This document shows positions 88-33,646 of a stretch of 33,646 nucleotides of DNA, piece by piece. The stretch is from a virus (taxonomy: Duplodnaviria; Caudoviricetes). The stretch's first letter is position 1, and each line of letters opens with the position of its first letter. The notes beneath the pieces are model-generated. The model saw nothing but the letters and a program-made list of their open reading frames with translations, had not been told where the DNA came from and did no database searches. The position numbers and the translations under genes were made by a program. Where the stretch lies: positions 1-33,646 of IMG/VR virus record IMGVR_UViG_3300031839_001335. One strand, written 5' to 3'.

Positions 88-258
88 ATGAAAAGGTTTA
101 TTTTGACGAGGAAAATAACACATACAGAGAGAGCAGTGGTTGAGTCAGAATCATGGGATGACGCTAATGCTATGCTTAGAAGTGATGAAACTGACTTTGA
201 AATTCAGGCCGATGATGATATTGAAGATGAAACTATTGAATATATTGGCGACTGCTAA
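88..258 (+). CDS. Small acidic hypothetical protein (cassette-type ORF)
   Basis: ATG at 88 after GGAGAG. The stop TAA is the TAA of the core TGCTAAC (253-259). The ORF track extends it to a TTG at 4. Confidence 0.65.
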   Translation: MKRFILTRKITHTERAVVESESWDDANAMLRSDETDFEIQADDDIEDETIEYIGDC

Positions 259-271
259 CAGCGCAATAAGC
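253..271 (-). other. attI-like recombination site A
   Basis: Minus strand reads GCTTATT-GCGCT-GTTAGCA (7-nt box, 5-nt spacer, GTT core). It has no hairpin partner and matches sites at 2544-2562 and 25723-25741. Confidence 0.55.
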
Positions 272-321
272 GGAACACTATCCACGTAATTTAATATTAA
301 ACTTAATAAAAGGAAAAACAC

Positions 322-1052: not shown

Positions 1053-1222
1053 ACACAACAGCATCAACATTCTTTAGCCTCATGGCTGAGTTCGGAACAG
1101 CACAAATACCGCTTGAGAGCATGTGCGATAAGTATTTCAACCTAAAGTATGGGGCAGCCAAGAGAAAAGCGGCCAAACAATCATTGCCAGCTAATTTTGG
1201 ATGCCCTTATTGGAGCGCCTAA
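1049..1222 (+). CDS. PrtN-like (pyocin activator family) small DNA-binding protein, apparently C-terminally truncated or chimeric
   Basis: Not in the ORF track. Reads MNTTASTFFSLMAEFGTAQIPLESMCDKYFNLKYGAAKRKAAKQSLPANFGCPYWSA with a GGAGG RBS. LMAEFG..IPL...C.KYF resembles the PrtN N-terminus. The stop lies inside the attC core GCCTAAC. Confidence 0.65.
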   Translation: MNTTASTFFSLMAEFGTAQIPLESMCDKYFNLKYGAAKRKAAKQSLPANFGCPYWSA

Positions 1223-1279
1223 CGCCTTAGTTAAAAGGCGGCTGCTTTTTAGCCGTCATTTTTGAACGACTTGTTAGCT
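1217..1279 (-). other. attC site 1 (63 bp)
   Basis: Minus strand: AGCTAAC-AAGTC-GTTCAAAA...TTTTAAC-TAAGGC-GTTAGGC, with an internal CGGCT/AGCCG stem. Confidence 0.88.
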
Positions 1280-1296
1280 GTTGGAGCTTGATTATT

Positions 1297-1548
1297 ATGA
1301 AAATACCAGAAGAATTAGAAGCAATTATTTACGACACAATGAAGCAGATGAGTGACCACAGTAAGGCTCTCTGCGATTTGGTGAACACGCACGGAACTGA
1401 CGAGCAAAAACAAGCATACAAAGAGGCTGTTTACGCTCCTGTGGTTCGGTTTTCTTTGATTCTCGGCAAAGACGCTATTGCACGCCATAAAATCAGGCAC
1501 GAAGAAATAAGCAAGCAGGTAAAAGCCTGCTTACATAGTGACAGCTAA
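1297..1548 (+). CDS. Gene-cassette ORF, hypothetical protein
   Basis: Bounded by GTTAGCTG (1273) and CAGCTAAC (ending 1549), which are perfect complements. GGAG RBS. The stop lies in the core. Confidence 0.8.
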   Translation: MKIPEELEAIIYDTMKQMSDHSKALCDLVNTHGTDEQKQAYKEAVYAPVVRFSLILGKDAIARHKIRHEEISKQVKACLHSDS

Positions 1549-1607
1549 CGTAATAACTAAGGGGTGCGTAGCGAAGCGGAGCATCCCGCTTGAGTGACTT
1601 GTTATGA
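1543..1607 (-). other. attC site 2 (65 bp)
   Basis: Minus strand: TCATAAC-AAGTC-ACTCAAGC-GGGATGC...GCACC-CCTTAGT-TATTAC-GTTAGCT. Confidence 0.9.
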
Positions 1608-1801
1608 GTAATTTTCAATTTAGCAACGTGGTTGTTGTAGATGATGACCAAATAGGCGTGATCGTCAAATCATGGGCAGACGGAAAGCATGATGTTTATG
1701 TGCGTAGTTACAACGGCGTGAGGGAGTACCCAGAAAGCGAGATTAAGCATTTTATTTACAGTAAAACCCTTGATGAAGATGAATACGCTTTTTACTCATA
1801 A
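1604..1801 (+). CDS. Gene-cassette ORF, small protein with an SH3/KOW-like beta pattern
   Basis: Bounded by GTTATGAG (1601) and CTCATAAC (ending 1802). The ATG and the TAA both lie inside the cores. Confidence 0.8.
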   Translation: MSNFQFSNVVVVDDDQIGVIVKSWADGKHDVYVRSYNGVREYPESEIKHFIYSKTLDEDEYAFYS

Positions 1802-1871
1802 CCCCGCTATTTTGCGGCGCACGTAGTGCGTCCGAGTGACCATCGGGAACGACAACAATGCTTTGTTATGT
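1796..1871 (-). other. attC site 3 (76 bp)
   Basis: Plus strand: TCATAAC-CCCGCT-ATTTTG...CAACAAT-GCTTT-GTTATGT, with an internal CGCAC/GTGCG stem. Confidence 0.8.
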
Positions 1872-1889
1872 GCCGACGAGGAGAGAGAA

Positions 1890-2057
1890 ATGGAAAATAT
1901 TGATGGTGACACAATGCAAGATTTTATTAACTGGCTTTCAGATAGAGAGCAGGACATTGCTGATGGTGTTGAAGATTTTGGGGGACTCCGTGCGATATTC
2001 TTCAGCCTATTTGGGCGTAATGCTGGTGAGAAAGTTGAGCCAGACCCGTTCTGGTAG
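1890..2057 (+). CDS. Gene-cassette ORF, small acidic hypothetical protein
   Basis: GAGGAG RBS before ATG 1890. Cassette bounded by GTTATGTG (1865) and CACATAAC (ending 2066). An in-frame GTG at 1836 lies inside the attC. Confidence 0.75.
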   Translation: MENIDGDTMQDFINWLSDREQDIADGVEDFGGLRAIFFSLFGRNAGEKVEPDPFW

Positions 2058-2059
2058 GC

Positions 2060-2137
2060 ACATAACGCCAATGCTTAGGGGCGCGAGGTACGAGCGTCCC
2101 AGTGAGTAAAGCGAACGACTAGAGCTACTTGTTAGCG
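2060..2137 (-). other. attC site 4 (78 bp)
   Basis: Plus strand: ACATAAC-GCCAAT-GCTTAG...CTAGAGC-TACTT-GTTAGCG, with a GGGGCGC/GCGTCCC stem. Confidence 0.85.
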
Positions 2138-2149
2138 CGAGGAAAAGAG

Positions 2150-2335
2150 ATGGAAATATTATGTTGGATTTTAGCCCTTATTTGGGTTTCCGGCTGGATC
2201 AAAGAATTGGCTTGGGTTCATTCCACCATGGAAAGACACGGTATTGAATACCCGGATGACGCAGTGAAGTACGCGATGCCTGTGGTGCTGTTCCTTGCCT
2301 GGCCGTATTTCTACTTTTATGGAAAGACACGCTAA
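2150..2335 (+). CDS. Gene-cassette ORF, small two-TM membrane protein
   Basis: GAGG RBS and two hydrophobic segments. Bounded by GTTAGCG (2131) and CGCTAAC (ending 2336). Confidence 0.8.
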   Translation: MEILCWILALIWVSGWIKELAWVHSTMERHGIEYPDDAVKYAMPVVLFLAWPYFYFYGKTR

Positions 2336-2393
2336 CGCCATAGCTGTGCGGCGTGGAGCGCAGCGGAACGTCCGAACGAGCGACTTGTTAGGC
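2330..2393 (-). other. attC site 5 (64 bp)
   Basis: Plus strand: CGCTAAC-GCCATA-GCTGT...ACGAGC-GACTT-GTTAGGC. Confidence 0.85.
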
Positions 2394-2440
2394 GTAATTG
2401 GAGACTGAAATGAGCAGGCAGAAGGACTTAGCATGCCACA

Positions 2441-2512
2441 TCCTTTAAGAAAAATATTTTCTTAAAGGATAGCATTATATTTCTTAAAGGACAAAAGCAC
2501 TTTCTTAAAGGA
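2441..2512. repeat. Iteron-like 12-bp repeats TTTCTTAAAGGA (3 direct, 1 inverted) inside an essentially non-coding cassette
   Basis: Direct copies at 2458, 2480 and 2501. Inverted copy TCCTTTAAGAAA at 2441-2452. Confidence 0.85.
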
Positions 2513-2543
2513 TGGAGTTTCTTCAGTTGACCTCGGCTTGAGC

Positions 2544-2562
2544 GCCTAACAGCGTATTAACA
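2544..2562 (-). other. attI-like recombination site C
   Basis: Minus strand TGTTAAT-ACGCT-GTTAGGC. It terminates the array and has no hairpin partner. Confidence 0.5.
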
Positions 2563-2591
2563 GGCAAAAAATAACTATACAGTACGCATAT

Positions 2592-4636: not shown

Positions 4637-4759
4637 TTGAAAGCTCCGTGAGACCCCGTCTCTTCAGGGCGGGGAGGTAAGAAGTGCTTTTGATCTTTTC
4701 TGTGCATAAATAATACCTTATATATTGACTTTCACATAATTTAATGCATTATATGAAGC

Positions 4760-4849
4760 ATGGTTAAAAAAGCATACAAATACAGATTCTATCCAGACGA
4801 AGAACAAGCAGAATTGCTTGCCAAGACGTTTGGCTGTGTTCGATATGTT
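4760..4849 (+). pseudogene. tnpB: tnpB 5' fragment (HTH_OrfB_IS605-like)
   Basis: Reads MVKKAYKYRFYPDEEQAELLAKTFGCVRYV, then is interrupted. Confidence 0.88.
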
Positions 4850-5549
4850 AGAAACTGATTCCGGCATCTCTCAAAGCTCCTTCTAAATAATCGATCCTTT
4901 TCTGCATATCCGTGACTGATCTGCGGTTATCTGTTTGTTGTTTTTTGGTTGCCCACCTACAATTATCTGGGTCATAGTTGCCGTTATTATTTATACGATC
5001 TAGTGTGTGGCTTTTTGATGGCCTGCGTCCCATATCCTCTAAGAATTTCGCATAGTTATTTACCCAGCTTTTGCATACGCTAATGCCTCTTTCGCCATAG
5101 TATTTGTAGCTAGGACTTTTATTATTCAAGCATCGGTCTTTCATCGACTGCCAGCTATAGTATTCGGAGCTGTAAGAATCTCCGTGAACAACTTTTTTGC
5201 TAAATTCACACCCGGTATTGCATGAACACTTACAGCCATCTTTTAGGCTAATACCAAGTGCATAAACAATCTCCCCGCAATCACAAATAACTTCATATTT
5301 TCGATTAGACCTATGTCCATTTTTGATTACTCTGTAATTTCCTGTTGCGGTGAGTGATCCAAAACGATCACCTTTAATAACAATGCTTTTCTTTCTTAAT
5401 TCTCCCGTTATGGCCTGTTCAAGCGTGGCCAATTTGTTCATCCTGGAACCAATCGTTGTTAATGGAATAGCATATTTTTTAGATGCTTCTTGTCTTGTTA
5501 AATACTCACCAAATACGTTGTGCTTTTTGGCTCTCATGGCTTTACTCAC
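4848..5549 (-). CDS. Phage HNH-type (His-Me finger) endonuclease
   Basis: CDCG/SCN motifs plus HG...EYYSWQSMKDRC...YGERGISVC...LDRINNNGNYDPDNCRWAT. Confidence 0.88.
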   Translation of the reverse strand: MSKAMRAKKHNVFGEYLTRQEASKKYAIPLTTIGSRMNKLATLEQAITGELRKKSIVIKGDRFGSLTATGNYRVIKNGHRSNRKYEVICDCGEIVYALGISLKDGCKCSCNTGCEFSKKVVHGDSYSSEYYSWQSMKDRCLNNKSPSYKYYGERGISVCKSWVNNYAKFLEDMGRRPSKSHTLDRINNNGNYDPDNCRWATKKQQTDNRRSVTDMQKRIDYLEGALRDAGISF

Positions 5550-5556
5550 TCTATAT

Positions 5557-5928
5557 AACGATAACCAATTATATCACAAAACCCTTCGCATTAAAAACAT
5601 GATTAAAAATCCTAAATTAGCCAAGCATATCGCGGACGCGTCTTGGGGAGAACTGACTAGGCAAATAGAGTATAAGTCCAATTGGGGCGGTCGTACTTTT
5701 GTCGCTATTGACCAATGGTTCCCTTCGAGTAAACGCTGTGATTGCTGCGGATACATTGCGGATACGTTGCCGCTCGATGTACGTTCCTGGACTTGTCCAG
5801 AGTGCTCAACAACACTGGATCGAGACATCAATGCGGCCAACAATATTAAGCGGGCGGGCTGCTCGTTAATAGCCTTTGGAGAGAATGTAAGCGGCATTGG
5901 GTTAGTCCCTGTGTCCAGTTCTCGATGA
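5557..5928 (+). pseudogene. tnpB: tnpB 3' fragment (Zn ribbon plus RuvC-III)
   Basis: NDNQ...IKNMIKNPKLAKHIADASWGEL..QIEYK...PSSKRCDCCG...WTCPEC...DRDINAANNI. Confidence 0.9.
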
Positions 5929-5967
5929 ATTAGGAATCTCCTTCCTTTATGTAGGAGAGCAGTCAAT

Positions 5968-17561: not shown

Positions 17562-18542
17562 TTAAATAGGGCCTGCAAATTGAGTCAAAACATTGACGGC
17601 CGTGGCTGCTGCCGGTGAGCCGGTTTTATCCAGCACATAGTCACCTGCCTGATATGCAGTATCCTCGATTGGCTGCTGCGTTACTCTTGCGGCCTGCTCT
17701 AGCGCATCATCCTCACCGATTGCCAACCCATAGCCCAATCGAGCAAGACCCGATAAGCCCTGCATGGGCACATCAAACAAGTCAAGGACGTTGCCTAGCT
17801 GTTGCATGACTTCAGCAAATTGCTGCTTTCTCGCTTCTCGCTTCATGGCAAAGGCCTCACCTCTGCGTCTGCGCTCTTGGTTCTGCTCTTGTTGAGCAAT
17901 AGCTGCCTGAGCCTCTTCAGGAGCCATAGAAGCGCCCACTAAACCGGCTGTTACGGCTGCTGGTGCGGCAGATGCTAGTAGATTTGGGCTGCCAATCTTT
18001 TCGGGGTCGAATTCGGCGTTGACGCTGCGAATTTTTGAAGGGTCAAGCACCACCGTTGCCGGAGGTCTTTGCCTTACAGCATCTGCACCTTCATCGACTA
18101 TAAAACTGTCAAAACCCAATTCAGGGACTTCTTCTCGTAAAAATTCAGCTAATGAGTTATTTTCAACCCAGTCAGGCAACCCTTGTTCTGTGATCTCGGA
18201 ACCGTTATCAAAAACACCCTTGTATTTTTCTCGATAGATACGCAAATGGTCGGGGTTACGAGTATCAAATGTTTTCTGACGATTTAGATAAACAGGGATT
18301 ACACCGGGCGCATCTTTTGTAACCCCGTAGAAAGATGACGATGATGCACTTGAGTCTGTGAACTTACTAGCATAATCAGCGTCTGCCGTGAAAAAGGAAT
18401 CTTCTTTAAATGACGGGAAATCGATATTAGGAGAACCGTGATAAAAAACCTCGCTAGTGTCAAACCCCATGTCACGCGCACGCTTCATACGAGCAGCCGT
18501 TGACATATCCAGCGCTTTCTTTAAGCCAGCCAGCTTACCCAT
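17562..18542 (-). CDS. Protein with a putative ADP-ribosyltransferase-like (polyvalent-protein ART) domain
   Basis: RA..MGFD...YHGS...F...FFT.D..YAS.F...VIPVYL...DP.KIRSVNA.FDP motifs, then a helical A/Q-rich C-terminus. Confidence 0.6.
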   Translation of the reverse strand: MGKLAGLKKALDMSTAARMKRARDMGFDTSEVFYHGSPNIDFPSFKEDSFFTADADYASKFTDSSASSSSFYGVTKDAPGVIPVYLNRQKTFDTRNPDHLRIYREKYKGVFDNGSEITEQGLPDWVENNSLAEFLREEVPELGFDSFIVDEGADAVRQRPPATVVLDPSKIRSVNAEFDPEKIGSPNLLASAAPAAVTAGLVGASMAPEEAQAAIAQQEQNQERRRRGEAFAMKREARKQQFAEVMQQLGNVLDLFDVPMQGLSGLARLGYGLAIGEDDALEQAARVTQQPIEDTAYQAGDYVLDKTGSPAAATAVNVLTQFAGPI

Positions 18543-20376
18543 CAACCTGTTCCAGCATGTCACTTAAGCCAGACTCAACCGCATCATTCTCTAGCTCTTG
18601 AGCCTCAGTGTCGGCCATGTCTTTAGCAGCTTTGGCCAATTTTGCGCGAATATCGGCTACTTTTGTGGCTTTCTCAATTTGGTAAGCCTCTTCCTCACGC
18701 TGTTGAGCCTTTTGCATCTCTACCTGCTTCATTTCAGCCTCTTCCGGGCTTAATTCACCGCCGGAAATGACTTCCATGAGCCGTTTTTTGTTCGGAACAT
18801 GAGGCATCAACTCAAGCCAGATTTGTAAAGGCACCTGAGTACCTGAAGCACTCACCGCATTAGCAAATGCCTCGAATGTCTCGGTCTGCAATGTGGTGAC
18901 GTCCGGCACCATGTCTAGGATGATGTCGATGTCCAACTCAGCCACATGGTTTTCGATGTGGTGAACCTCGTTTGCGATGGGGTTCATCGGATCAAACGGC
19001 TGGCCCTGCTCTTTGAGCATCTCGCCAAACGTAACCGGCTTATTCAGCGCGATAAATTTCAGACTGTTTTCGTCATCGGTAACGCGAATCCACTTCTCTT
19101 CACGCCAGAATTGCTTGATACGCGCCCAAATCTGCCGATAGATGCGCTTTTCCCAGTAACGTGCGCCATCCAGAAGCGGTGCAAGGCCACGCACTGCGGC
19201 CTGCTGGCTCATTTGCATGGCGCGGCCAGATAGCGACTTCTCAGAGCCACCTGAAAGCTGCTCTACGCCACCAAAGCTGTTAAGCGATCCCTTGGCATCC
19301 TGCAATAGCTGAAACTGACCGGACGCTAGGTCGCCAGTATGCTCGATGCTGAATTCTTTGCCGGGGTTTTTCTCAACGTAGCCATCAGGCTTGTTGACCT
19401 CGGCTCTGGCTCTGTTGATGCTATCGACTGCGCCCTTGTCCGCTATGACCTGTCGAGTAGATAGCAAGTGCAGTGACTTAGATCGTCGCTTATTGATCTC
19501 ATCAACAATGGTGATAAGTTGCCGAACATAACCGTATGGGTTGTTGTCCCGATCCATGTAGGCGCGTTGCACCTCAATCGGGTTGGCCGGCTCACCATCC
19601 TCATCCAGATAGTCAGACGGATGCGGCTCGACCACATAACCCTGTCCGGTAAACATGCAGTGCAGCCACTGACCACCAGACTGATAATACATCTCGATGA
19701 TCTTGACGCGATGGCGATTGCGGTCAAAAAACAGGTTCTTTGGCTTGTCGTCGTAGGTATCTGTGCCGCCTGCCTCTTCAATGCCAGCGGTCAGGATGGT
19801 CGGGTCAACATTCGGCCACTTGGCCTGTGCTGCCGTGTCCTCCATCCAAATCGCCTGCCCCATAAACATGGCGTCTGCGCCGTCTTTGCGTGACGAATGC
19901 GAGTCGATGAAAAAGCGATCCCAAGGGATGCGACGAGGCATAATCTCAACACCCCGCTTACCCTTCTTGATCTCCACAATAGAAGCCATCGTGCCTTCGA
20001 CCAAGTAGTCATCAATGCATGTTGTCTTAACTTGATCTAAATTAGCGTTGTCGGCCACATAACGCAAGGCATCGGTCACGGATTCTGCCGCATCTTCATC
20101 GTCTGGATTTCTAGGGAATCCCTTTATATCAGTTCGGGAGGTGATCTCGTAACCGATGATCGATTGAACAAACTCTTTAAGCTCAGGCGATTGCGTTATC
20201 GGTTGCTTGCGGTTCTTAAGCGCAGTTTCTTCCTCAGAAGTCCATTGCTTCAAGTCCACATAGTCTCGATCACGCTCTGCCTTTGTGCGGTTGTCTTGAG
20301 TCGCCAGCGCGGTATCAATATACCAACGTTTCACATCCTCAAGCTGTTTTCCAGGAGTCATATTCGTCATCTTCAT
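18535..20376 (-). CDS. Portal protein (P22-like; start may be 20361)
   Basis: DRDY.D.KQW, L..R.QP, PYG.VR.L...DEINKRRSK and SGRA motifs. Follows terL. Confidence 0.92.
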   Translation of the reverse strand: MKMTNMTPGKQLEDVKRWYIDTALATQDNRTKAERDRDYVDLKQWTSEEETALKNRKQPITQSPELKEFVQSIIGYEITSRTDIKGFPRNPDDEDAAESVTDALRYVADNANLDQVKTTCIDDYLVEGTMASIVEIKKGKRGVEIMPRRIPWDRFFIDSHSSRKDGADAMFMGQAIWMEDTAAQAKWPNVDPTILTAGIEEAGGTDTYDDKPKNLFFDRNRHRVKIIEMYYQSGGQWLHCMFTGQGYVVEPHPSDYLDEDGEPANPIEVQRAYMDRDNNPYGYVRQLITIVDEINKRRSKSLHLLSTRQVIADKGAVDSINRARAEVNKPDGYVEKNPGKEFSIEHTGDLASGQFQLLQDAKGSLNSFGGVEQLSGGSEKSLSGRAMQMSQQAAVRGLAPLLDGARYWEKRIYRQIWARIKQFWREEKWIRVTDDENSLKFIALNKPVTFGEMLKEQGQPFDPMNPIANEVHHIENHVAELDIDIILDMVPDVTTLQTETFEAFANAVSASGTQVPLQIWLELMPHVPNKKRLMEVISGGELSPEEAEMKQVEMQKAQQREEEAYQIEKATKVADIRAKLAKAAKDMADTEAQELENDAVESGLSDMLEQVDG

Positions 20377-25650: not shown

Positions 25651-25722
25651 TTCTTCTTATCAGTCGGTCTTTGCCTACTTCCTTTTGACATTTTCTTATC
25701 CTTTTTTTTAGTTGTTAGTTCC

Positions 25723-25741
25723 GCTTAACGCACTGTTATAT
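25723..25741 (+). other. attI-like recombination site B
   Basis: GCTTAAC-GCACT-GTTATAT, preceded by GTTCC as in site A. Confidence 0.55.
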
Positions 25742-26797
25742 AATTTTCACAAGCCATTGGGAATAAATCTCGGTTGCTATTTGTGCAGTCATTACAGGGG
25801 GTACACTCATTCCAATTAAATAAACAGGTTTATTAGTGCAAAAATTATAATCCATTGGGTAACTTCCTGCCTTTTTACATTCATCATCAAATAAAGTTCT
25901 TTCAATTTCATAGTCATAAGGCAAGCCACTTGCTCTAATTGTTGGCACTACTTTGTCAGGGTGTAATTTAATTTCATTAAAGTAGCTTCCTTTAGGGTGC
26001 ACACTGCTAAAGCTATTTCCAGCCTCACAAAGCAACCAATATTCTCTAATCATTGGAGAAAGTCCAATTGCATTTTCATTGCCTTCTGTTTGTCTTATGT
26101 ATTTGTATGGTATTTCAGGTTCTTTAAAATCGATTGTAATTTCAGGAGCAACGGTAAATAAATCCATCTGTTTTAAAAACGGTCTCGCTAAATCTTTTCT
26201 AAATGCAATAAAAAAAACACGCTCTCTTTTTTGTGGCACTCCCATTTTTGAGCCATCAACTAAAAAATGTTGTACGTAATATCCTGCTAAATCAAATTCC
26301 TTGTAAATTTTTCTTACATACTCTTTTGCATCTCCCTGCAATAACCCTTTTACATTTTCAGCAACAACAACTTTAGGCTGCAATTCTTTTGCAAGGTCTA
26401 TAAAGTCAAAGAATAAATTATCTAAAACCTGTACAGCTTGTCCTTCTCTAAATTTCTTTTCTTTTCCCCAGTCCTTTTCTCTATTTCCAGCCGTTGAAAA
26501 ACTGCTACAAGGGGGCGAACCGTCTAAAATATCAAGGTTGTAAAGTTCTTCTGGTAAATCCTTTCTTAATTTAAAAGTTTGGATAGGCTCTAAATAAGCA
26601 TATTTAGGGTTGTGGTTAGCTTTGTATGCTTCCATCATTTTAGGATCAATCTCATTACACCCTAATACATCAAAGCCAGCTAATTTATACCCCATTGTCG
26701 AACCACCACCGCAAGCAAAACAACTAAAAACCGTTCCTTTATCTTTTGTGAAGTTTGCATCTTTTAAAGTCCATTCATATTGGTATCTATGTTCCAT
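25736..26797 (-). CDS. C5 DNA cytosine methyltransferase (gene cassette)
   Basis: Motifs I (FACGGG), IV (GSPPC), VI (ENVKG), VIII (PQKRERVF) and X (GMSVPP). No cognate endonuclease nearby. Confidence 0.95.
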   Translation of the reverse strand: MEHRYQYEWTLKDANFTKDKGTVFSCFACGGGSTMGYKLAGFDVLGCNEIDPKMMEAYKANHNPKYAYLEPIQTFKLRKDLPEELYNLDILDGSPPCSSFSTAGNREKDWGKEKKFREGQAVQVLDNLFFDFIDLAKELQPKVVVAENVKGLLQGDAKEYVRKIYKEFDLAGYYVQHFLVDGSKMGVPQKRERVFFIAFRKDLARPFLKQMDLFTVAPEITIDFKEPEIPYKYIRQTEGNENAIGLSPMIREYWLLCEAGNSFSSVHPKGSYFNEIKLHPDKVVPTIRASGLPYDYEIERTLFDDECKKAGSYPMDYNFCTNKPVYLIGMSVPPVMTAQIATEIYSQWLVKII

Positions 26798-26823
26798 AAA
26801 ATATTAATCTCCAATAAAAAATT

Positions 26824-26957
26824 ATATAACAAAAGCATCAAGCGGACTAAAACCGCTATCGGCTTTTTTAGTTTGTTGCATGTCTAAAGTTAATTGGTCT
26901 TTCAAAGTATCTCCTGTTATTTGTGGCGGTTTTAACCGCTTATGCTAAACGTTATTC
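26824..26957 (+). other. attC site 6 (134 bp, long type)
   Basis: ATATAAC-AAAAG-CATCAAGC-GGACTAAAACCGC...GCGGTTTTAACC-GCTTATG-CTAAAC-GTTATTC. Confidence 0.9.
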
Positions 26958-31825: not shown

Positions 31826-32917
31826 ATGAGTAACCAATCAATAGCGCAAGTGATAGAGGTGGCTGAGGAACGATTTAATCAAATCGCGCCATCAAGCATG
31901 AAGTACGAGGCTGAGAAAGGCTTTGCGATCCAGTTGTTAAAAAACAGTTCGTATTTAATGCAAGTGGCTACGGCTGCGCCTCAGTCATTACAGCAAGCAA
32001 TAACCAACGTTGCGGCAATCGGTTTAAGTTTAAACCCAGCCGAAAAGATGGCGTACTTAATCCCTAGAAACATTAAGATCAGCAAGGATAAGTGGGAAAC
32101 AAGGGTGTTCTTAGAGCCTTCTTATATTGGCCTCATTCGATTAGCGACTAATTCTGGTTCAATAGACTGGATTCAGGCTAACACGGTTCACGAATCAGAC
32201 ACGTTCACTGATAACGGCATGGGTGATAAGCCAACTCATGTGTTTGATGCTTTTGCCAACAAAGAAAAGAGAGGTGATGTTGTCGGTGTTTATGCGGTCG
32301 CTAAAACAAGTAAGGGCGACTACTTAACAGCTACCATGAGTCTTGATCGCATTTTAGAGATACGCGATAGATCGGAAAGCTATAAAAAATATCAGTCTGG
32401 CGTATGGGTAACTGACTTTGAAGAAATGGCTAAAAAGGCCGTGATAAGACTTTTATTTAAAACCCTGCCTAGAACAGATGAAAACTCAAGAATGGCTATG
32501 GCGGTGGAAATATCAAACGAGAATGAAGGGTTCGAGCCTATTATCAACAACCCAGACATAGGTCAATACACTGCAAACCAGAAAGAAACATTCGACAAGA
32601 TTATATCTGATGGCGACGCTTTCGGTATGTTTGTTTTCAGTAGAACGATTGACAGGGGCGTATTCGATAATCTTTATCATTCATTCGAGAAAGGCACTAA
32701 AGGAAAATATCAGAAGATAATAGACTCATTAAACTCTGATGGCGCAGAGGTAGCCAACGAATACGCAATGTCAATCACTGAAATGGCTAATAGAGGTGAT
32801 GTAGACGGATACAGAGAGCTAATTAACCCATTAACTAACGATGACTTAAAGGTAATTGATAGCCTTCTGGATAGCGAGGTTCAGATGATAGTCTCAAGGG
32901 AGTTCGCGGGTGTATAA
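31826..32917 (+). CDS. recT: RecT-family single-strand annealing protein
   Basis: IGLSLNPA...AYL.PR, SY.GL..LA..SG and W.TD.EEMAKK.VIR...K.LP motifs. Confidence 0.88.
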   Translation: MSNQSIAQVIEVAEERFNQIAPSSMKYEAEKGFAIQLLKNSSYLMQVATAAPQSLQQAITNVAAIGLSLNPAEKMAYLIPRNIKISKDKWETRVFLEPSYIGLIRLATNSGSIDWIQANTVHESDTFTDNGMGDKPTHVFDAFANKEKRGDVVGVYAVAKTSKGDYLTATMSLDRILEIRDRSESYKKYQSGVWVTDFEEMAKKAVIRLLFKTLPRTDENSRMAMAVEISNENEGFEPIINNPDIGQYTANQKETFDKIISDGDAFGMFVFSRTIDRGVFDNLYHSFEKGTKGKYQKIIDSLNSDGAEVANEYAMSITEMANRGDVDGYRELINPLTNDDLKVIDSLLDSEVQMIVSREFAGV

Positions 32918-32977: not shown

Positions 32978-33220
32978 TTGAGCTACGCAAGCTGGCTGAC
33001 CCTGCCGCGAATAATGATGCACGAAATGCCGGACGAATGGCAGGACAAAATGGCTGCTTTGCTTGAGGAGTGGGACGAAACCTGGAACAGCGACGACATG
33101 CCAAGCCCAAGCGTAACAGCTAAACAAAACGGCAAATTTACACTGTGGCCGAGCTGGTTGTTGAACTACCGCCACCCAGACAGGCAGGAAATTGAGAAGC
33201 GCAGAATTGGCGGCGCATAA
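32978..33220 (+). CDS. Cassette-type ORF, probably 5'-truncated
   Basis: TTG start without an RBS. The frame extends upstream only to a TGA. The stop lies in the core GCATAAC. Confidence 0.6.
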   Translation: MSYASWLTLPRIMMHEMPDEWQDKMAALLEEWDETWNSDDMPSPSVTAKQNGKFTLWPSWLLNYRHPDRQEIEKRRIGGA

Positions 33221-33344
33221 CGCCAAGCGTAACCCGACGCCGGGCAGAAACACGGGAGACTTGAAGCAATGAAAGAGCAAAAAGACCACACAAAACCAGA
33301 AGCCGCAGAGGATCAGGCGGTCGGCGTTGACGCGCTTGTTAGTT
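33215..33344 (-). other. attC site 7 (130 bp, long type)
   Basis: Minus strand: AACTAAC-AAGCG-CGTCAACG-CCGACCGCC...GGCGTCG-GGTTACG-CTTGGC-GTTATGC. Confidence 0.85.
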
Positions 33345-33589: not shown

Positions 33590-33644
33590 CGCCCACATAT
33601 AAGCGGTGGCGATTTTAGCCATCCGATTGATTTGCTTGTTAGCT
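33584..33644 (-). other. attC site 8 (61 bp)
   Basis: Plus strand: AACTAAC...CGGTGGC-GATTTTA-GCCATCCG-ATTGATT-TGCTT-GTTAGCT. Confidence 0.78.
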
Positions 33645-33646
33645 GT

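Follow-up and report, generated by a model that had tools for sequence, protein, structure and literature searches.

The early operon of the marine phage represented by our window (the whole stretch of 33,646 bases that was analysed) probably carries a reversed integron-type array, whose units are exchanged at their cores, with a host IntI the likely enzyme and the folded coding strand its likely substrate. Described in an initial annotation as an integron-like gene-cassette array, the feature is a CALIN that behaves like an integron array: five sites lie within 1.2 kb and the record holds no intI, and it is neither a complete integron nor arranged in the usual cassette layout. Comparison of sequences established that the sites have attC geometry when read on the minus strand, that unit ends are matched, and that hairpin-plus-gene units recur almost unchanged in other phage contigs beside different neighbours.

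The virus record is linear, with a CheckV completeness of 81%. Its gene content comprises a head and connector of the podovirus type, genes for replication, recT, ssb, a cro-like repressor and a xis-like gene; neither an integrase nor cI was detected in it with PHROGs and PF00589 profiles. The array is located between the xis-like gene, whose stop codon falls within the TAAC of site a, and a holin gene on the minus strand (Table 1). Since the array cargo proteins recur on a contig of 35,264 bp, the record lacks about 1.6 kb of phage sequence. The best match of the terminase was at 55%, and a promoter scan returned three sites, below the chance mean of 5.4. Two further loci of the window drew our attention: a broken IS605-type element in the late operon (4640-5960), which retains a TnpB-like remnant and is accompanied on the other strand by a gene for an HNH endonuclease, and an ADP-ribosyltransferase-like domain (PF18760) flanked by portal and scaffold genes (17562-18563).

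Table 1. Features of the array and of related loci in the window; the strand given for attC sites is that of the top strand.
Feature	Position	Strand	Details
Terminal half-site, 21 nt	256..276	-	before ssb
xis/PrtN-like HTH gene, 57 aa	1049..1222	+	PHROG 1300 excisionase, E 1e-9; PF11112
attC site a, 63 bp	1217..1279	-	42 bits; L box 7/7 pairs, extra C; predicted crossover 1222/1223
ORF1, 83 aa	1297..1548	+	predicted cassette 1, 1223-1548
attC site b, 65 bp	1543..1607	-	31.6 bits; L box 6/7; predicted crossover 1548/1549
ORF2, 65 aa	1604..1801	+	predicted cassette 2, 1549-1801
attC site c, 76 bp	1796..1871	-	29.3 bits; predicted crossover 1801/1802
ORF3, 55 aa	1890..2057	+	predicted cassette 3, 1802-2065
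attC site d, 78 bp	2060..2137	-	21.6 bits; predicted crossover 2065/2066
ORF4, 61 aa, two hydrophobic stretches	2150..2335	+	predicted cassette 4, 2066-2335
attC site e, 64 bp	2330..2393	-	39 bits; predicted crossover 2335/2336
Unit 5, non-coding	2387..2550	+	first 45 nt of gene cassette and block of four 11-bp repeats
Half-site f	2544..2568	-	beside holin stop (2592)
Terminal half-site, second copy	25718..25738	+	after methyltransferase gene
C5 cytosine methyltransferase	25736..26797	-	PF00145, E 2e-44; unit 25735-26830, 13-nt matched ends
Long attC site, 134 bp	26824..26957	+	top strand opposite to genes; L box 7/7; z -2.9; PWM orientation
recT	31826..32917		
Long attC site, 130 bp, 3' of recT	33215..33344	-	box geometry; PWM
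attC site at contig end	33584..33644	-	29.4 bits; 82% copy in contig L078

The five imperfect palindromes of 63-78 bp reported in the initial annotation were recovered as sites a to e, and its figure of eight attC sites in the window held for complete sites, three of which lie outside the array; beyond these, there are the two copies of the terminal half-site and the site following unit 5 (from 2544), which is no more than a half-site. Box geometry and model matches support the assignment of the complete sites as attC-type. The units have complementary ends, as had been noted: the match spans 9, 11, 10, 7 and 8 nt in the array and, for two units outside it, 9 and 13 nt. Among the 5040 permutations of these seven units, the true end pairing received the top score, and non-cognate pairs match over 4-6 nt. 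The labels core and inverse core had been assigned to the wrong strand, and both belong on the other one. An arrangement of one ORF of 55-83 aa per unit was seen in four units (83, 65, 55 and 61 aa), the exception being unit 5, which has no ORF of at least 45 aa. Stop codons fall in TAAC, as claimed, in three of the four ORFs and in the upstream xis-like gene; that of ORF3 lies 6 nt earlier. At the ends of the window, the last bases (33638-33646) equal the first 9 nt of a unit whose start is the same as that of unit 1, and an ORF at 88-258, preceded by the region 1-87, has its own matched unit start in one metagenomic run (X7) and none in the window copy.

Folding was a poor guide to these sites. 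The free energies of the array sites are weak against shuffled sequences (z from -1.65 to +0.79), with only the long site beside the methyltransferase gene reaching -2.9. Constrained folds of the bottom strand gave -7.6 to -13.6 kcal/mol and pfold values of 0.01-0.23, unconstrained z-scores being weak, and the constrained fold of the site at the contig end was poor. Folding by free energy without constraints failed to pick out the array sites and returned many chance hairpins, and an Rfam search reported no family at its threshold. The case for attC rests on end matching, box geometry and models, and not on folding energy.

PHROGs, Pfam, Atlas and homolog searches gave nothing usable on the function of ORF1 to ORF4. 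Three homolog clusters were found for ORF1, with no family assignment; ORF2 has 110 matches at E<=0.001, all unnamed, its nearest Atlas clusters being hypothetical with scores <0.9; and ORF4 has a single homolog (63%), likewise without a family. The start codon of ORF2 lies inside the GTTATG (GTT) box of hairpin b (1601-1606), so any ribosome-binding site must derive from that hairpin. The sole hint at function in the cargo is the C5 cytosine methyltransferase, 68% identical to phage methyltransferases, which suggests restriction evasion.

The initial annotation had implied the usual layout, in which a gene is followed by its own attC on the same strand; instead, in each of the four array units (4/4), the gene runs antisense to the top strand of attC. 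Along the plus strand, AAC is followed by a spacer of 6 nt, boxes of 7 and 8 nt, a spacer of 5 nt and GTT, and the usual attC top strand is the mirror of this reading. Along the minus strand, the order in all five array sites is AAC, a spacer of 5 nt, L boxes of 8 and 7 nt, a spacer of 6 nt and GTT, the usual attC layout, which an alignment of bacterial sites shows too. L-box pairing reaches 6-7 of 7 on the minus strand versus 4-5 on the plus strand, and the extra base is C in four of the five sites. By blastn, site d is 80-87% identical to sites in plasmid cassette arrays and site e 76-79% identical to Thiolapillus plasmid sites, in both cases on the strand opposite the plasmid genes.

Models gave the same orientation. 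A covariance model, a check of the kind proposed for the sites at the outset, matched six window sites, all on the minus strand, at 21.6-42 bits (next best, 7.1); it was our own build from 32 bacterial sites, 24 of which had been found with a window-derived pattern, making it partly circular, and had been oriented from our own ORF calls. For this reason, we built a position weight matrix (PWM) as a second check, using 31 of the 43 bacterial matches in which the window-derived pattern is absent, at most three per locus. The PWM preferred the antisense strand in 8/8 sites, all of which ranked in the top 9 of 564 candidates. Sites of TJE1, a published phage array, scored weakly with our covariance model, which thus captures no more than a portion of the diversity of attC sites. 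The spacer lengths and the extra base, together with the bacterial attC model and the blastn matches, place the attC top strand opposite the genes, which predicts a crossover at the TAA|C that follows every gene; a cassette would then be made up of a hairpin and the gene downstream of it. Judged by its sequence, the methyltransferase site on the other genome arm is reversed too.

Reversed polarity was also the prevailing state in a viral-versus-bacterial control, for which one strand-neutral pattern was searched in both collections and loci were taken from among the matches listed. With overlapping duplicates excluded, we applied the model to 79 of the 80 long viral loci, to 78 of the 80 long bacterial ones and to four plasmid loci, and it matched in 17 viral and 34 bacterial or plasmid loci among the matches listed. 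Within this set, 11 of the 16 viral units lying between model matches were antisense (one sense, four unclear), and 37 of the 49 bacterial units were sense (four antisense, eight unclear). Counted per locus among the same matches, six viral loci were antisense and two tied out of eight, versus 18 of 19 sense in bacteria (p 4e-5), where units are not independent and two of the viral loci share one contig. A rougher first count pointed in the same direction. Further reversed arrays were observed on other contigs (L119, 5647-7910; L078, 5371-6551 and 1810-2910; L124, 1-1689). Several of them start with a similar partial site that retains only the arm adjoining the first gene, and this partial site may serve as an anchor.

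Between the cores, gene content proved variable among both related and unrelated phages, the opposite of invariance and in keeping with the shuffling envisaged in the initial annotation. On phage contig L124, whose terminase could not be aligned with that of the window (best E 0.97), the unit 1273-1549 occurs at 99.3% and hairpin e at 100% over its 58-nt body; the two are joined to each other, and hairpin e sits between other genes than in the window. A 55-kb contig, L478, carries hairpin a (52/57 nt) and unit 1 (275/277 nt), again between other genes, and a 91% copy of site a is present in L119. We also compared contigs over the array from the source run (X1) and from seven runs of seven other studies, all of mixed communities. 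Pieces running from hairpin a into ORF1 were listed in four of the outside runs (X11, 1258-1529; X12, 1228-1549; X13, 1247-1535; X18, 1228-1296), and none of the outside pieces listed joined ORF1 to hairpin b; in X6 and X7, a different hairpin follows 1550. Altogether, an a-type hairpin precedes ORF1 in five of six outside sources (L478, X11, X12, X13 and X18, the exception being L124), and three other hairpins follow it (in L124, in L478 and in X6/X7), a linkage pattern that fits cassettes bounded at TAA|C. Hairpin c and ORF3 (1804-2068) recur in X18 with three differences and in different flanks; the stretch 1864-2066 is present in X12 with 28 differences, and site c precedes a different gene in X13. 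Taken as sequence evidence, these recurrences indicate that cassettes move as discrete units between phages.

Unit 5 has junctions of its own. Its repeats start at 2441 (inverted), 2459, 2481 and 2502, with direct copies spaced 22 and 21 bp apart; contigs of X11 and X18 diverge from the window after 2431, and in X12 the repeat block has a different upstream neighbour. The repeats possibly form a protein-binding array that travels as a cassette. They are kept in relatives and lie (2441-2512) at the cumulative GC-skew maximum. Half-site f is probably a truncated attC, and the X11 contig continues past 2568 into an attC-like far arm.

Coverage of the array differed among sources. Most runs had no cover over cassettes 2-4, which we did not count as loss; X12 showed depth in the bin of site b that none of the pieces listed explains; and the source run yielded a single unbranched contig over 1000-2750. 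Neither circles nor excision joints appeared in the assembled contigs of the eight runs, a form of data that drops rare forms. A blastn search of GenBank phages with the array returned no match, relatives found by holin and xis had no array except L001, which is the same phage, and a search of metagenome contigs for the holin-end pattern returned nothing.

Some breakpoints lie at the other core: in other contigs, different genes come after hairpins a, c and e, and ORF1 follows hairpin e in L124. Crossover of the bottom strand alone does not explain them. In chromosomal integrons, many genes normally share the same hairpin, but this leaves the two different upstream hairpins of ORF1 unaccounted for. 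Because one gene occurs here with two different hairpins on the cassette-internal side, ORF1 offers a test case for gene-attC joining. To our knowledge, the origin of attC sites is an open question in the field.

The terminal half-site gives the array system a candidate entry point. Matched twice in the window versus none in 100 shuffles, it ends two other window arrays, as well as two arrays of L078. Among 36 metagenome loci, it was found in 34 distinct contexts, some probably chance matches and several on a common contig; for 18 of them, an 8-nt unit start that matches lies <=2.5 kb upstream, and for 22, an ORF of at least 40 aa stops in the half-site TAA. In at least five groups of contigs (window/L468/L486, L466/L483, L488/L490, L473/L478 and L462/L489), identical DNA 3' of the half-site is preceded by different units before TAAC. 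In 17 of 18 half-site loci, the attC lying closest upstream is reversed, and 11 of 14 units are antisense, with none sense. These sequences make the terminal half-site a putative attI-type entry site, since such a site would behave in this way in a reversed array. Half-site f of the main array differs from it. An ordinary xis and integrase follow the half-site in L463, and temperate phages therefore share the system. One 52.8-kb contig (L466, L467, L471, L487, L489 and L490) has six or more terminal half-sites, together with several arrays.

In the mechanism that we favour, a host IntI would catalyse exchange on the coding strand, the predicted recombining strand, with crossover at TAA|C and with cassettes that each comprise a hairpin and the following gene. 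New cassettes would enter at the downstream attI-like half-site or at an attC, and their genes would be read from the phage early promoter. The absence of a tyrosine recombinase noted in the initial annotation extends over all 33,646 bases of this linear, 81%-complete record, which likewise lack intI, and neither IntI nor PF00589 was found in any of five array-bearing records, all of them fragments. A search of viral contigs with an IntI query, requiring exact peptide words, returned no match that combined IntI-level identity with IntI-level length (the longest at 29-34%), and the 28 loci scanned out of 80 had no attC. A host IntI would be the simplest source of the activity.

Alternatively, the same reversed array could be served by a phage-encoded recombinase, whose gene would lie in the missing 1.6 kb or in a phage that infects the same cell, which we regard as improbable. 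The 35,264-bp contig leaves room for a gene of about 1 kb, and a tyrosine recombinase of 214 aa lies 8 nt past the terminal half-site on two contigs (L478, 3030-3674; L473, 648-1292), on the side and strand expected of intI. That protein was rejected as an IntI: it scores 23-25 bits against TIGR02249, whose cut-off is 265, and has neither the IntI-specific insertion nor the N-terminal domain. Many different backbone genes follow the half-site, and the five array-bearing records without IntI and PF00589, although fragments, argue in the same direction.

Another explanation needs no integrase at all. The hairpins would be integron relics or recurrent intergenic elements, and RecT-type annealing would swap genes at short cores. 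The phage has recT, swaps occur at both cores with 5-11 nt in common, and the same hairpins are seen in many contigs. Nevertheless, swaps by homology would neither create nor maintain matched ends of 7-13 nt that are specific to each unit, they do not account for an extra base on one side and for the asymmetry of the 5- and 6-nt spacers, and the breakpoints at the terminal half-site lie exactly at TAAC; we consider this reading quite unlikely. That the whole phage is one giant cassette, integrating into a host integron via its own attC in place of int/attP, is highly improbable even though the array lies at the usual int/attP position, after the xis-like gene and facing the lysis genes, with no int or cI found, the xis-end core and the 2387 core match over 8 nt, and some variants have the 2387 core joined almost directly to the holin, since the core GTTAGGC is frequent among the bacterial sites and pairs with the end of unit 5 itself too, no lysogeny repressor is visible, and no prophage within an integron was found.

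With host IntI as the presumed enzyme, the reversed polarity may itself have a function. IntI has been reported to prefer the bottom strand about 1000-fold, with excision increased when this strand serves as the template of lagging-strand synthesis (Loot et al., 2017; PMC5371416). For genes co-directional with the replication fork, the coding strand is the lagging-strand template, and reversal would therefore keep the genes in the operon and favour shuffling. The recombining strand might thus be the lagging-strand template of a fork that moves with transcription, a suggestion we make more guardedly than the rest. Cumulative GC skew turns at about 31,276 (minimum) and at 2,424 (maximum), which fits this fork direction but may also be an effect of transcription. 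In a wider and tentative scenario, unrelated marine phages would trade reversed cassettes through attI-like sites and host IntI, and genes would be re-coupled to hairpins to make new cassettes; this is possible, yet we would not count on it.

The early regions of phages often contain small variable genes in rows, which are usually attributed to illegitimate recombination. The system described here offers a site-specific mechanism for them and would make a host adaptation enzyme a tool of phage evolution. The window resembles bacterial integrons in attC box geometry, matched cassette ends and one gene per unit, and its sites share 76-87% identity with those of plasmid arrays. Unlike bacterial integrons, it has no intI and no Pc, its genes are antisense (bacteria are sense in 37/49 units among the matches listed), and its cargo is 55-83 aa in size, with expression that would come from the phage operon. 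As the half-site of the window would, attG sites provide an entry route into integron-less DNA, and these double-stranded sites have been proposed as attI precursors (Loot et al., 10.1101/2022.09.11.507474). The attG sites are short and scattered, whereas the 21-nt half-site is conserved across many contigs and reused.

Clusters of attC without an integrase in phages, recombined by IntI1, have already been published: Qi et al. (2023; PMC9892861) reported 17 CALINs in 10,705 phage genomes, and IntI1 recombined five of the six sites tested. These phage CALINs share with the window several attC between small phage genes, no intI, and methyltransferase cargo. The closest case is their CALIN of Pseudoalteromonas phage PH101 (NC_029094). 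In its array (76529-77987, L455-L458), we found the annotated genes on the minus strand and the attC top strands on the plus strand, and the reversed layout is thus present in a phage tested with IntI1. That paper lists the PH101 coding strand as the bottom strand, which IntI1 recombines better than the top strand (PMC9892861). Two of the PH101 attC sites resemble copies of one sequence. TJE1 has normal polarity, so reversal is not universal in phages. We found no published account of reversed cassettes in phages within a scope that mostly excluded subscription papers, and the figures or Dryad data of Qi et al. may show polarity. In its passages on PH101, the same text calls the layout typical and mentions neither antisense genes nor turnover nor an entry site (PMC9892861). 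Unlike PH101, the window has three arrays on both genome arms, exchange seen in sequence comparisons, and a conserved terminal half-site. What it adds to these known systems is evidence of linkage between genes and hairpins, a cassette in common with an unrelated phage, and a candidate entry site.
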